Shown here one piece after another: positions 44,207 through 60,127 of a stretch of 64,000 nt of DNA. The position numbers and the translations under genes are program-made. Location of the stretch: the NCBI GenBank assembly GCA_013286785.1, contig JABDFC010000007.1:3540-67539 (forward strand), given 5' to 3'. This DNA is from Gammaproteobacteria bacterium (lineage in GTDB: Bacteria > Pseudomonadota > Gammaproteobacteria > UBA6186 > Azoamicaceae). The notes under the pieces were generated by a model. The model was not told where the DNA came from. It ran no database searches and saw only the letters and a program-made list of their open reading frames with translations. Each line of letters starts with the position of its first letter. Position 1 is the stretch's first letter.

Positions 44207-44220
44207 TAGGGAAATTCCTA
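44207..44220. promoter_or_regulatory. dyad box TAGGGAAATTCCTA (site a)
   Basis: Exact palindrome-like 14-mer in the divergent intergenic region between the OMP gene (43978, minus) and the RNase III-like gene (44598, plus). Confidence 0.5.
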
Positions 44221-44397
44221 TATCTTTGTGACAATTTATTGCCACTTTTGTTTACATTACTGATATTAAATACCAAAACGTCAGAGTTTAGGCTTTATTA
44301 AAATTTATCATTTGAATAGATTACGACTGCTATTCAAACGTTTGAGATAGGGATCATTCCAGGCATCGTCCCGAGACTGTCTAAAAGTGTCGGGGGC

Positions 44398-44450
44398 GGG
44401 TCCAAACAAACGACAAACAGTTTTCTTCTTGTCACTTATTGAGATATGAC
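44398..44450. repeat. X-repeat copy 2 (right arm decayed)
   Basis: gggtccaaacaaacgacaaacagttttcttcttgtcacttattgagatatgacc. It shares about 45 nt, plus the G-rich lead-in gtgtcggggg, with copy 1. Confidence 0.7.
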
Positions 44451-44597
44451 CTAGAGGAGGTCTGATTTTCTTTAGAATTTTGGTGGAATGTGGTATAACT
44501 GTGGTTAGAGAATTCGCGCGGAGGCTGCTCGGTGACTCGTTGAAAGTGGTGCACTTTTGTTTTGGCTGGGGCGTGAGATTACGAGGGGGTGTATAGT

Positions 44598-46526
44598 ATG
44601 TTCAAAGTAATTGATCATAATTATAAAAATGCGTTGTTAGAAATCGCTCAACGTCATTTTGGGGTGGAGCGACCACAATACGTTCATTTTGACTACGGTC
44701 CACATCATGCTATAGTATTTCGCTGTATCTGTAGTTTTCACCAACAAATGACATCTAGCGTAGGTCGCACTAAGGTTGAAGCAGAACTGCTCGCATCACA
44801 AGCTATGCTGAATAAAATACAGCATTTATGTTTCAAACAAGTAAATACCGAATGGATTTTCTCAACAGCAGAGGAATCGGCCGTGCTGACTCCTCATACA
44901 TTAAGCGTGTTAGATAATTTAAAGAATGATCCCCATTTTGATGTCTTTAGCTTATATGGTGACGCAATAATACGTTATGTCGTTGCTCAATATTTATATG
45001 ATAATTATTCCGAGTTTCGTGAGGGTGTTCTTACATTAATTATCGCTGAGGCTATGTGTGAGGAAACACGTGCACAGGTTGCACTGAGTCTTAAATTAGA
45101 GACGTATGTCAGAACTGAAATCACTACACGAGGGTTAGCCGACGCATTGAGTGCAGCCGTTGGGAAACTCAATTTTTTGGCGCTAGACAATTTAGCTAAA
45201 AAGTTAATTTTAGAATTTTTTCAGCCATTTATTGATCAATCCGTGTCGATAATTTTAAAGAGTTACATTTCCACAGGTAAGTTAGCCACTTCCGCTGTGA
45301 TTAAAACTACTATTCACAATTTTAAAAACGAATTACAAGAATATGCTCAAAAACATGGCTTTCCAATGCCGTCTTATCATCTAATTGATAAGGAAGGTAT
45401 TGAGCATGCACCTACATTTAAGATTAAATGCGTATTTAATAGAATGTCTGAAATTGGTATCGGAACAACCGTAAAGTCTGCTGAACAAGATGCTGCGAAA
45501 GGTATTTTAGAAAACATCACTTTAGAAGATGTGGGCGAGGAGCGATTTGTTAGAAGATCACAGACTTATGCTGGTTCATTAGTATCTGACGCTACTACTA
45601 ATGAAAGGGATGTTTTGGAGTTAAAACGCCATCTTCATTTACCTGATTTTGTAACATTAGTGCATTTAAAACAGGCATTTATTCATTCAAGCTTGGATAC
45701 TAAAGACAATTACCAACGATTAGAATTTTTGGGTGATGCCATTTTAAGAATGCTAATCATTGATTATATATTACGTAAATATCCAAAGATTATTGATAAG
45801 TCATTCTTTTCGCCATTGGTTGATCAGCTGGTATCTGGTGAAACACAAGAAAAAATTGCTAAAAAACTACAATTAAAAAAATATATATTCTCTTCTGCTA
45901 TGATTACCGATGGGATGCTCAGTGATGTTTTAGAAGCCTTGATCGCTGCCATTTATGTTGATGCTGAAGCGCAATCTATAGGGACAGGTTTTTATAATGG
46001 CGCAGTGCCAGTCATTATCGATTGGTTTAAACCAGAAATCATGCACAGTTTGCGTGATTATCATCTTGCAACAGAGGGAACAGTTGGAGCAGATAATTTT
46101 CCAGCATTAGCAGTGGCGGCGACTGTCGCGAAGACTGCAGCTCCAACTGATACACTGGTTCGCTCATATGCAGCAGTTGTAGCAATAAAACAAACAGCTA
46201 GAAAACCACAATCAACTTCTAGACCTGCTCCAGCGATACAAGAAGATTTTCCGCCTTTAAGCACGCAAGCTGTCAAAACAACTGATAACCAATCAAAACG
46301 CAGTTACGTAACAGTAGCTACTCATGCTCAGACATCAGCAAGCATGGTTACGACTTCAACCGGAACACAAGGTAGTTCATCTGCAGCAGTTGCAACAACA
46401 ATGCAAGTAACCAGTAAACCGAAACCGATGGTTTGGTCTGCTCCCAAAATACATGGAAAACTTCCTCCTTTAGGGACATTAACGCCTAAAACAATAAATA
46501 CTGGTGATCTGCCAAAGTTCAAATAA
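44598..46526 (+). CDS. protein with two dsRBDs and two RNase III domains (first degenerate) plus a disordered A/T/S/P-rich tail
   Basis: - dsRBD1: NYKNALLEIAQRH...GRTKVEAELLASQAML.
- RNase III domain A: FSLYGDAIIRYVV...LADALSAAVG.
- dsRBD2: NFKNELQEYAQKHG...VKSAEQDAAKGIL.
- RNase III domain B: NYQRLEFLGDAIL...LSDVLEALIAAIYVD.
- The ATG at 44598 lies 8 nt after GAGGGGG. Confidence 0.8.
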   Translation: MFKVIDHNYKNALLEIAQRHFGVERPQYVHFDYGPHHAIVFRCICSFHQQMTSSVGRTKVEAELLASQAMLNKIQHLCFKQVNTEWIFSTAEESAVLTPHTLSVLDNLKNDPHFDVFSLYGDAIIRYVVAQYLYDNYSEFREGVLTLIIAEAMCEETRAQVALSLKLETYVRTEITTRGLADALSAAVGKLNFLALDNLAKKLILEFFQPFIDQSVSIILKSYISTGKLATSAVIKTTIHNFKNELQEYAQKHGFPMPSYHLIDKEGIEHAPTFKIKCVFNRMSEIGIGTTVKSAEQDAAKGILENITLEDVGEERFVRRSQTYAGSLVSDATTNERDVLELKRHLHLPDFVTLVHLKQAFIHSSLDTKDNYQRLEFLGDAILRMLIIDYILRKYPKIIDKSFFSPLVDQLVSGETQEKIAKKLQLKKYIFSSAMITDGMLSDVLEALIAAIYVDAEAQSIGTGFYNGAVPVIIDWFKPEIMHSLRDYHLATEGTVGADNFPALAVAATVAKTAAPTDTLVRSYAAVVAIKQTARKPQSTSRPAPAIQEDFPPLSTQAVKTTDNQSKRSYVTVATHAQTSASMVTTSTGTQGSSSAAVATTMQVTSKPKPMVWSAPKIHGKLPPLGTLTPKTINTGDLPKFK

Positions 46527-46538
46527 GATAGAAGGATT

Positions 46539-46566
46539 GGCCCAAACAAGCGACAAGTTTTTCTTG
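46539..46566. repeat. X-repeat copy 3 (left half)
   Basis: ggcccaaacaagcgacaagtttttcttg, 13 nt after the RNase III-like gene stop. Confidence 0.6.
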
Positions 46567-46573
46567 AACATTT

Positions 46574-47341
46574 CTAAAAAGAATACGCTCTACTACGACC
46601 TAATTTGTTTTCAGGGTTTTCCTCACTGCTTACTGTCGCAAATGAATTTCTCCTTAAAAAACTTTTAAACATTGGTTTTAAGTCTACTTTTGAAACGTTT
46701 GCCGTACGTTCCCATCCACCAAGAGGTAGAAACCCAAGAGTGTCATAGGGGTTTCTAAATTCAATATTAAATTTAACAATAAGATCCTGGATTTTTCTTA
46801 CTGTTTCGAGATTCTGAGAATCCCTTTTTTCGTCGTCTAAAAAGGACGGATAACTACGACTTTCATCTGTTAGTTTAACAGCCAAACGAAGCCTTGCTGC
46901 AATTGCCATTACGTGTGCCATCAATAACTTCATAATGCCTCGTCCTCGGTAGGACTCGTTAACATCGACACCAAAGATAAGCAGATGATCTTTTGAAATT
47001 CGGCAACTAATGTTTGCTACACGAGAATTTGGAAGTTTTATTAAATAGGCTGCTATGTGTAACCAGTCTCCAGCATCTATATGAGCTTGTGTTTCTGGAT
47101 CAAGATTTTGTAGAGGAGGGGGTGAGAATAATCGAAAAATGACCTCTCTTTCTATAGCAGCATTTTGTAATGGTAAATGTGAAATCAACTGAATTGGAAG
47201 ATCTGCAACAGATGCACTGCCTTCTGTAATTCTTCTTTGGAATGGTTGAAGGATTTTTGGTGGGAGCAACTTCTCCCATAATTCTGCTTTTATATCAACT
47301 CTCACAAAATTACCTACTAATACCCGTAAAAAAACTGTCAA
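46574..47341 (-). CDS. hypothetical protein with weak GNAT-like acetyltransferase motif
   Basis: LLIFGVDVNESYRGRGIMKLLMAHVMAIA resembles GNAT motif A (R/Q-x-x-G-x-G/A). The rest is unassigned. Confidence 0.35.
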   Translation of the reverse strand: MTVFLRVLVGNFVRVDIKAELWEKLLPPKILQPFQRRITEGSASVADLPIQLISHLPLQNAAIEREVIFRLFSPPPLQNLDPETQAHIDAGDWLHIAAYLIKLPNSRVANISCRISKDHLLIFGVDVNESYRGRGIMKLLMAHVMAIAARLRLAVKLTDESRSYPSFLDDEKRDSQNLETVRKIQDLIVKFNIEFRNPYDTLGFLPLGGWERTANVSKVDLKPMFKSFLRRNSFATVSSEENPENKLGRSRAYSF

Positions 47342-59218: not shown

Positions 59219-59275
59219 CTCTCAAAAATCGCATGGTGAGGTCTCATAATAAAAATGACTTCTTCTAAGTTTATC

Positions 59276-59306
59276 AGCCCAGATACATCAACCTGGGCTT
59301 TTTTTT
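59276..59306 (+). terminator. rho-independent terminator
   Basis: Stem agcccag/ctgggct with a 10-nt loop, followed by a run of 8 T. Confidence 0.7.
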
Positions 59307-59327
59307 GGCGGTAGCTTTAGATATCTT

Positions 59328-59852
59328 TTATATGGTTGCTTTGAAACTATTGTTGGTGATATTATAAGTGCTGTTTCCCATCCAGGGTGACGAGTTGAAC
59401 TTTAGTTCGGCAGCTTCTAACTTGCTAATTTCTTTCTCTAAAAACTCCAAGCATTGCGATAATTTTACCAACTCGTTTAATTCATCCATGGAGTGCCAAT
59501 AAATATACAAAATATCTGTGTGTTTAATCTCGTTGGCATAGTTCTGTTTTGTTAATAATTGGATTTTAAGTGATTGAATTTGATTGGATAGAACAGTTAT
59601 TTTATGTGTTGCGCTATTACAGGCGTCAAGCTCTTTTTCGAGAATTGGCAGTTCAGTGTTAATGTGGCCACTGCTTTCTCTTAAGAAATTAACCAAATTT
59701 TCAGCAAAATGTTTTAAATACTGTTTTAAGTTCAGCTCATTCTGATGTGGAGCGTTACTCTCTAATGTATTTATTCGTGCTTCACATAGTTCTAATCGGT
59801 GTGTGAAATCCTTTAATTTAAAGTTAATATTGAATAGGTTTGCCTCGCTCAT
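59328..59852 (-). CDS. hypothetical coiled-coil protein
   Basis: 174-aa ORF with heptad-like leucine spacing. No family recognised. Confidence 0.45.
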   Translation of the reverse strand: MSEANLFNINFKLKDFTHRLELCEARINTLESNAPHQNELNLKQYLKHFAENLVNFLRESSGHINTELPILEKELDACNSATHKITVLSNQIQSLKIQLLTKQNYANEIKHTDILYIYWHSMDELNELVKLSQCLEFLEKEISKLEAAELKFNSSPWMGNSTYNITNNSFKATI

Positions 59853-59919
59853 AAAATAACTCCTTAAATTTTTTGATTTTTAGCCCTTAACTGTACTGGA
59901 TGTTAGTTGTTTTGTCATA

Positions 59920-59933
59920 TGGGAACTTCCCTA
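59920..59933. promoter_or_regulatory. dyad box, reverse complement TAGGGAAGTTCCCA (site d)
   Basis: Lies 68 nt upstream of the minus-strand start at 59852. Confidence 0.45.
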
Positions 59934-60083
59934 TTAATTCGTTCGAACGTTATCTGAAAAATATTACTTATAATCACAAGAGAGGTAAGTTTGGCAATAA
60001 CGCTTTGATACTCTCTATGCTGCTCGATATACTGAGTTGAGATATAAAAATTCTTTTGCTGGTTATTTCCTATGGAATAAACC

Positions 60084-60127
60084 TAGGGAAAACCCTAGTT
60101 GACAGAGGTGATGCTTCAAGATAAATA
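60084..60127 (+). promoter_or_regulatory. dyad box TAGGGAAAACCCTA (site e) abutting a candidate sigma70 promoter
   Basis: The box at 60084-60097 is followed 1 nt later by TTGACA (60099-60104), a 17-nt spacer and TAAATA (60122-60127). The ORF start is at 60198. Confidence 0.45.

Follow-up and report, generated by a model that had tools for sequence, protein, structure and literature searches.

The closest described relative of the system treated here is VqmA, a cytoplasmic receptor for quorum sensing in Vibrio whose autoinducer is 3,5-dimethylpyrazin-2-ol (DPO). VqmA activates vqmR, a small RNA (sRNA) gene, and the VqmA encoded by a phage uses a single divergent promoter to activate qtip as well as its own gene. 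The VqmA operator in the vqmR promoter (PvqmR) is AGGGGGGATTTCCCCCCT, in which GG-N6-CC is the key palindrome, and the operator in the qtip promoter (Pqtip) is TAGGGGGAAAAATACCCT (PMC8284805). According to an earlier statement, homologues of VqmA occur in Vibrio and phage VP882 only (bioRxiv 10.1101/2019.12.19.881847), and our literature search found no description of VqmA relatives in other hosts. Local activation of effector genes is also described for two Legionella regulators, RegK3 (PAS and LuxR-type domains, lpg2557) and LexR1 (LuxR-type, lpg2524), and the LexR1 element is an inverted repeat with GTC...GAC whose mutation abolishes activation (PMC13555631). Here we analyse a 64-kb stretch of a gammaproteobacterial genome (GenBank: GCA_013286785.1, contig JABDFC010000007.1, positions 3,540 to 67,539), called the window below, which carries five copies of a 14-bp dyad, called the box, and at its right-hand edge a gene for a regulator with a PAS domain and a LuxR-type helix-turn-helix (HTH) domain. 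Judging from the sequence, the box is probably the operator of this VqmA-like regulator, which would activate a few accessory genes in its vicinity.

The pattern TAGGGAANNYCCYA is matched exactly five times in the window, starting at 44207, 51637, 58239 and 60084 on the plus strand and at 59920 on the minus strand, and allowing up to one mismatch adds no further site in the 64 kb. The five sites are as follows.

44207..44220, plus strand: box a, TAGGGAAATTCCTA, between an outer membrane protein (OMP) gene (43364-43978, minus strand) and a tandem RNase III-like gene (44589-46526, plus strand)
51637..51650, strand-neutral: box b, TAGGGAAAACCCTA, a perfect TAGGG-N4-CCCTA dyad
58239..58252, plus strand: box c, TAGGGAAATTCCTA, then a weak -35 hexamer TTTTCC (58254-58259), a 17-nt spacer and the -10 hexamer TAGGAT (58277-58282)
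59920..59933, minus strand: box d, TAGGGAAGTTCCCA, then the -35 hexamer ATGACA (59913-59918), a 17-nt spacer and the -10 hexamer TACAGT (59890-59895), towards a 174-aa gene
60084..60097, plus strand: box e, TAGGGAAAACCCTA, then 1 nt, the -35 hexamer TTGACA (60099-60104), a 17-nt spacer and the -10 hexamer TAAATA (60122-60127), towards an 1177-aa gene

The five boxes exist and are non-random. Dinucleotide shuffles of the window gave a mean of 0.01 matches, and five or more matches occurred in 0 of 100 shuffles. The looser core TAGGN6CCYA is found at the same five places only, with 9 strand-matches against 2.15 expected in the window. All five boxes are intergenic and lie between 44 and 60 kb, and there are zero boxes in the core half (1-24 kb), where gltA, sdhA and sucA are located. 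A sequence-only reading of the stretch had reported five intergenic copies with none in the core half and far less than one match expected by chance, and is borne out in each respect. For this genome the box scan covered the 64-kb window. A weight matrix made from 20 sites of other lineages, all outside the window, has the consensus TAGGGAATTCCCTA with the invariant core TAGG-N6-CCTA. Its five best sites in the window are the five boxes, which score between 15.3 and 20.7 bits, with the next best site at 10.1. GG at box positions 3-4 and CC at positions 11-12 are present in five of five boxes as well as in the family consensus, giving the form TAGG-N6-CCYA with an A/T-rich centre.

The box could also have no regulatory role and either recur by chance or be the part conserved within a small mobile or repetitive element. 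Boxes a and c are identical 14-mers, as are boxes b and e, and they lie in an island-like region with insertion sequence (IS) elements, as would fit such an origin. The alignment of 50 nt on either side of the five sites shows conservation confined to the box, with flanks that share no homology. None of the repeat families in the window covers the five sites. As the flanks are unrelated, the box does not belong to a longer repeat, and the longer mobile repeat considered in the sequence-only reading is excluded. With no similarity beyond 14 bp, a chance expectation of 0.01 and a box that distant lineages conserve in orthologous promoters with constant spacing to -35 and -10, a non-regulatory role is effectively refuted.

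Sites c, d and e share one common layout, in which the box is followed by 1 nt, a -35-like hexamer, 17 nt and a -10-like hexamer. This includes the TTGACA beside site e, which had already been pointed out from the sequence and lies 1 nt from the box. In this canonical layout the box centre is near -43.5, just upstream of the -35 hexamer, so that it has the position expected for an activator. The spacing recurs beyond the window. A hexamer identical to TTGACA in at least five of six positions lies exactly 1 nt past the box in 8 of 46 site-orientations, compared with about 0.2 expected, and a TAnnnT follows 17-18 nt further on. The box thus keeps a fixed spacing to promoter elements. Box b has a similar arrangement leftwards, with 1 nt, ATGCTA (51630-51635), a 17-nt spacer and TAAAAT (51607-51612), towards a 58-aa open reading frame (ORF) and a STAS-MlaE operon.

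The same regulator and sites might also serve negative control, with the apo or the liganded protein repressing the promoters. The near-consensus -35 hexamers (TTGACA, ATGACA) with acceptable -10 hexamers might fire without an activator, and with only 1 nt between the box and the -35, a bound dimer could stand in the way of sigma region 4. However, VqmA and the phage VqmA are both activators, the box overlaps neither the -35, the -10 nor the start site, its centre is at the classical activator position, and the poor -35 of site c (TTTTCC) is typical of activator-dependent promoters. We therefore regard repression as unlikely.

The candidate regulator for the putative activating operator is encoded at the window edge.

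63743..64000, minus strand: last 85 codons of a gene for a regulator with PAS_4 and LuxR/GerE-type HTH domains, cut by the window end

The sequence-only reading had named a GerE/LuxR-type regulator at this position as one candidate, and the HTH domain is real. An identical Logan contig (L001) extends the protein to 249 aa, with a PAS-like domain followed by the HTH, and ends inside the gene. Among 5.8 billion proteins searched there were only 19 relatives. Sixteen are full-length with 41-63% identity, and all of these contain both PAS_4 (Pfam: PF08448) and GerE (Pfam: PF00196). The regulator has the two-domain architecture of the VqmA type, PAS and LuxR-HTH in 249 aa without a receiver domain. 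In comparison with PDB sequences, the family profile matched V. cholerae VqmA (PDB: 6UGL, 6KJU, 6IDE) over both domains (profile positions 6-213) with an E-value of 2.2e-22 and phage VP882 VqmA (PDB: 7DWM) with an E-value of 2e-12, and phmmer with the single sequence matched the VqmA structures over both domains with an E-value of 2.7e-16. The C-terminal HTH matched VraR and FixJ weakly in the PDB profile search (E-values of 1e-4 to 1e-3). The recognition helices are alike, ISHKSIEAY in the regulator and ISIKTVEGY in VqmA. A structure model of the homologue P0001 (predicted local distance difference test score, pLDDT, of 80) has a PAS fold followed by a four-helix HTH domain. With this model, the top eight Foldseek hits were VqmA chains (E-values of 8e-13 to 1e-10) and EL222 came next. 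The TM-scores of the VqmA chains are low (0.41-0.49) because the relative domain orientation differs. By these comparisons the regulator is homologous to VqmA, and it appears to be a distant relative that belongs to a sister family in uncultured gammaproteobacteria outside Vibrio. None of the regulator homologues found comes from a named Legionella genome. The family profile search was swamped by proteins with multiple PAS domains, and about 13 full-length representatives were among the best 150 matches. In a collection of plasmids and chromids, matches to both domains were found only in Salinivibrio and Photobacterium, and these are presumed to be VqmA orthologues.

The operators can be compared as well. 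The box shares with the VqmA operators a G-tract, an A/T-rich centre, a C-tract and the GG-N6-CC geometry. Upstream of the presumed vqmA genes the sequence reads TAGGGCAAATCC... in Salinivibrio and TAGGTGATTTCC... in Photobacterium, and the -10 is about as far away. The longer forms of these regions are TAGGGCAAATCCCCCCTA and TAGGTGATTTCCCCCCTTA, respectively, each followed by the -10 hexamer TATAGT. At its ends the box matches TAGG...CC of the Salinivibrio and Photobacterium sites as well as TAGGG...ACCCT of Pqtip. Depending on the register chosen, the distance from the centre to the -10 in these Vibrionaceae sites agrees to within 1-3 bp with the distance at sites c, d and e.

Further similarities connect the locus with the VqmA-PvqmR and phage VqmA-Pqtip pairs. 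These are a cytoplasmic PAS and LuxR-HTH receptor of about 240 aa with full-length homology, a site upstream of the -10 that often lies beside the receptor gene and, as in phage VqmA, one site that can serve divergent promoters. Unlike VqmA, the family described here occurs in uncultured non-Vibrio gammaproteobacteria, its operator has 14 bp instead of 18 bp, and the box is found at five promoters of protein-coding genes, whereas the VqmA target is one sRNA. A direct target of the VqmA type, an adjacent vqmR sRNA gene, was thus not matched. We detected no vqmR-like sRNA with Rfam, which is insensitive here and missed vqmR in the Vibrionaceae loci too. Moreover, the conserved partner genes of the regulator, which encode a giant aminotransferase-like protein and a small helical protein, are not shared with VqmA.

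A separate observation concerns the role of the TTGACA hexamer. In the Vibrionaceae sites upstream of the presumed vqmA (L025 at 1094-1118 and L026 at 1064-1090), TGTCAA abuts the TAGG end of the presumed VqmA operator, on the side distal to the promoter and away from the -10. The same arrangement with 0 nt between the two elements is found upstream of the regulator gene in L005 (position 9867). Such an abutting TGTCAA may serve as an extended contact within the operator and not as a -35.

Comparing loci between lineages provides the second line of evidence. We examined about 15 distant homologues of the regulator (41-63% identity) from uncultured bacteria, with loci, denoted by L numbers, taken from genome contigs, metagenome contigs and look-ups of exact proteins. 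A scan of 168 kb of such DNA gave 13 sites that differ from TAGGGN4CCCTA in no more than one position (2.5 expected) and three perfect ones (0.09 expected), compared with one site (1.0 expected) in control loci around unrelated LuxR-HTH genes. Most of the sites are intergenic, with the regulator gene, the gene for the aminotransferase-like protein or that for the small protein next to them. Across lineages, the box occurs together with the regulator gene.

The regulator homologues almost always have the gene of the giant protein as a neighbour, and frequently the small gene as well. The giant protein with an Aminotran_1_2 domain (about 800-1400 aa) is encoded beside or close to the regulator in 13 lineages or more (the window, L002, L003, L004/L010, L005, L008, L009, L019, L021, L027, L028, L029 and the P0011 contig). 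For 11 lineages DNA was available, and in nine of them a box lies 57-158 bp upstream of this gene, which besides the window are L002, L003, L004/L010, L008, L009, L019, L021 and L028. The homologous small gene has a box upstream in at least seven lineages. Its promoter follows the pattern box, 1 nt, ATGACA, 17 or 18 nt and TAnnnT in window site d, L019, L021, L023, L005 and L027, and L008 has the identical layout on the corresponding side of its box. In L019, L021 and L008 there is a single box between the divergent promoters of the aminotransferase-like gene and the small gene, and this one box appears to serve both. The comparison of promoters in related genomes proposed in the sequence-only reading therefore finds the box before the orthologues of both genes, and the motif is kept in distant lineages beside the regulator homologues. 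Since a box also precedes the regulator gene or its operon in six loci (L002, L004, L005, L028, L003, L023), the arrangement suggests that the regulator is autoregulated in several lineages.

Another dimeric protein of the NarL/FixJ/LuxR type, for example a global response regulator, might bind the box, with the PAS-LuxR gene merely co-located. Inverted 7-bp half-sites that end in CCTA are general in this HTH class, as in the RcsAB box, the TTTCCTA repeats or heptads of BvgA and the LetA box. Because the box resembles such generic dimer sites, its sequence is not sufficient to tell which protein binds it. The scan of this genome covered 64 kb. The co-occurrence speaks for the regulator. The box tracks the regulator gene across lineages in which the regulators are 41-63% identical and the flanking genes differ, control loci with other LuxR-HTH genes have no enrichment, and the GG-N6-CC geometry is that of VqmA. 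Binding by another dimer is thus improbable, more so than repression by the regulator itself. The proposal of a dedicated regulon, with the box as operator and the LuxR-type gene at the edge as candidate regulator, is supported by the homology to VqmA and its GG-N6-CC operator, the recurrence across lineages and the fixed promoter spacing, and on these grounds we think it probable.

Several findings weigh against an operator used for activation by this regulator. The likeness of the box to generic NarL/FixJ-type sites is one of them. The window contains only the 85 regulator codons, and the regulator promoter lies beyond its edge. The identity between the regulator and VqmA is only about 25-30%. 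Three residues of VqmA, F67, F99 and K101, are critical for DPO binding (bioRxiv 10.1101/2019.12.19.881847). In our alignment F67 corresponds to Y74 and F99 to V104, while K101 is kept as K106; K23 and D71 are also kept, and the position of VqmA D85 is an invariant Arg across the regulator family. The DPO-contact residues are thus kept in part only. A near-consensus -35 that adjoins an activator site is unusual and would also be consistent with basal activity or repression. Box a has no canonical -35 and -10 at the usual offset on either side, and box b has no comparable promoter rightwards, towards 51741 and the 305-aa gene. Furthermore, L027 and L005 have no box upstream of the aminotransferase-like gene.

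In the mechanism that we propose, which follows VqmA by analogy in all three of its main steps, the regulator would bind the box, activate rather than repress, and depend on a ligand. A regulator dimer would bind the dyad through its LuxR-type HTH domains and hold a small ligand in the PAS pocket. The ligand-bound dimer, placed at about -43.5 directly upstream of the -35, would activate sigma-70 promoters. The giant aminotransferase-like gene (site e) and the divergent small helical-protein gene (site d) would be the ancestral, conserved core of the regulon, and the boxed promoter of the regulator itself would create positive feedback in several lineages. Sites a, b and c would be lineage-specific additions in this genome. 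Possible added targets are the 82-aa ORF and the OMP paralogue at site c, the 58-aa ORF and perhaps the Mla-like operon at site b, and perhaps the tandem RNase III-like gene at site a.

A more speculative proposal, which we consider rather doubtful, is that the regulator, the giant protein, as a pyridoxal phosphate (PLP) enzyme, and the small helical protein constitute a signalling circuit complete in itself, in which the PLP enzyme would make or transform the PAS ligand and the box would give positive feedback. If this were true, uncultured and possibly intracellular gammaproteobacteria would have a new autoinducer or host-cue system akin to DPO-VqmA, and it would drive surface and effector-like proteins. 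Apart from this circuit, the sister family has a probable operator recognisable from its sequence alone, a conserved core of three genes, and accessory targets that change between lineages. VqmA was previously described with one or two known promoters. The locus offers a testable regulon, in which a candidate regulator is joined by five promoters that carry a defined 14-bp site, with the giant PLP enzyme as a constant partner. In metagenome-assembled genomes of this kind, regulon members can be annotated with the TAGG-N6-CCTA matrix.

Other LuxR-type systems resemble the locus in part. With LuxR and TraR at the lux box (-42.5) it would share a ligand-gated LuxR-HTH dimer, a palindrome near -43, activation and frequent autoregulation, but the sensor is PAS_4 and not an acyl-homoserine lactone-binding domain, the operator has 14 bp rather than 20 bp, and no LuxI-type synthase is present. 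Response regulators of the NarL/FixJ type such as RcsB, BvgA and LetA have an N-terminal receiver domain, phosphorylated by a kinase, and so differ from the regulator family, which has no receiver domain. With RegK3 and LexR1 of Legionella the locus shares a LuxR-type regulator beside its targets in a low-GC, horizontally acquired region, an inverted repeat at a fixed distance from the -10, and accessory or effector-like targets that vary between species (PMC13555631). For RegK3, which has a conserved element of its own upstream of legK3 and cegK3, the observed match is in the PAS-LuxR domain architecture. LexR1 is different in that it has no recognisable N-terminal domain and its element contains GTC...GAC, of which the box has neither half. 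The different core rules out the LexR1 element as the identity of the box.

Two other identities were considered for individual sites. A box of the LetA/GacA type that drives Rsm-like sRNAs was rejected, as Rfam shows only one tRNA and a thiamine pyrophosphate (TPP) riboswitch in the window and nothing downstream of box a. The GGAACTT in site d could be read as a motif for an extracytoplasmic function (ECF) sigma factor, but no matching -10 follows downstream and the dyad accounts for all five sites.

The genes that belong to the module or lie downstream of the boxes are listed here.

60198..63731, plus strand: 1177-aa class-I aminotransferase-like protein (Pfam: PF00155, residues 140-498)
59328..59852, minus strand: 174-aa helical protein, third conserved member of the module
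58299-58547, downstream of box c: 82-aa ORF
58559-59218, downstream of box c: OMP gene
51397..51573, minus strand: 58-aa ORF, called as a gene in the Logan contig and with the promoter geometry of box b
48802-51261, minus strand: STAS-MlaE / MlaF / MlaD operon, after the 58-aa ORF

The 1177-aa gene is the presumed principal target of the regulator. The N-terminal domain of its product keeps NPxNPTG, DEAY and SATKGFS (Lys319), which are motifs of active class-I enzymes, and the nearest models are those of HisC, CobD and aspartate aminotransferase, all far below their cut-offs. Three homologues were found by word search. The protein has no sequence match in the PDB, its C-terminal 680 aa have no Pfam match, and its structure model is poor (pLDDT 46). 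According to an alignment and this low-confidence model, residues ~770-1000 may form a second, degenerate aminotransferase-like alpha/beta region, with a disordered tail of about 180 residues in addition.

Homologues of the 174-aa protein, with 130-180 aa and the motif TDILxIYWYSK...CL, are encoded beside a box in L019, L021, L023, L003, L005 and L002. The protein itself has no match in Pfam, NCBIfam or PADLOC. Two paralogous PAS-LuxR regulators are present in two lineages, in tandem in L029 (2949-3626 and 3834-4553) and on the same contig in L002 (P0008 and P0014).

The target genes are less certain than implied in the sequence-only reading, which placed all five sites upstream of hypothetical or effector-like genes. 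Not every flanking gene that it listed is a likely target, as site b does not point towards the 305-aa gene and site a is without a canonical promoter. Its accessory-only setting also holds in part, since the accessory half contains core-like genes such as the Mla operon as well. Judging from the promoter geometry, the 58-aa ORF is the likely target of box b. The STAS-MlaE operon is found downstream of a box in a second lineage too (L028, 10320-12797, plus strand), and this lipid-transport (Mla-like) operon may recur as a regulon member. A 68-nt direct repeat with 84% identity (51414-51481 and 47089-47156) marks a paralogue of the 58-aa ORF at about 47100-47279 on the minus strand.

The target gene of box a is uncertain. 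A promoter-like TTGCCA-N17-GATATT lies at 44239-44267, 18 nt beyond the box, which would place the box centre near -60. The 368 nt after the box (44221-44588) are free of ORFs and contain a terminator-like hairpin at 44448-44472. An sRNA downstream of box a was looked for with Rfam, without a match, and the fold z-score of -1.26 is not significant. The 645-aa product of the gene that follows (44589-46526, plus strand) appears to have two RNase III domains and two double-stranded RNA (dsRNA)-binding motifs in tandem (Pfam: PF00636 and PF00035, two of each). Bacterial RNase III normally has one RNase III domain and one dsRNA-binding motif. The architecture of this tandem protein is eukaryote-like or effector-like.

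An anti-phage defence system was also considered for the module, and none of the module proteins has a PADLOC match. The only protein that matched is an unrelated Fic-domain protein in the island region, which has no box. This protein and the remaining features of the setting are as follows.

24047-24122, plus strand: tRNA-Lys(UUU)
24470-24587, minus strand: TPP riboswitch, just past the tRNA-Lys
30020-30883: IS3-like integrase, in the island region
32302-33435: IS1634 transposase, in the island region
36122-37876, minus strand: 584-aa Fic-domain protein with PADLOC SoFic and PDC-S04 matches

Positions 1-24 kb contain tricarboxylic acid cycle genes and have a GC content of about 44%. Beyond the tRNA-Lys the GC content is lower, at about 0.37 against about 0.44 before it, and genes of the IS type appear, so the tRNA-Lys region looks like the boundary of a genomic island.

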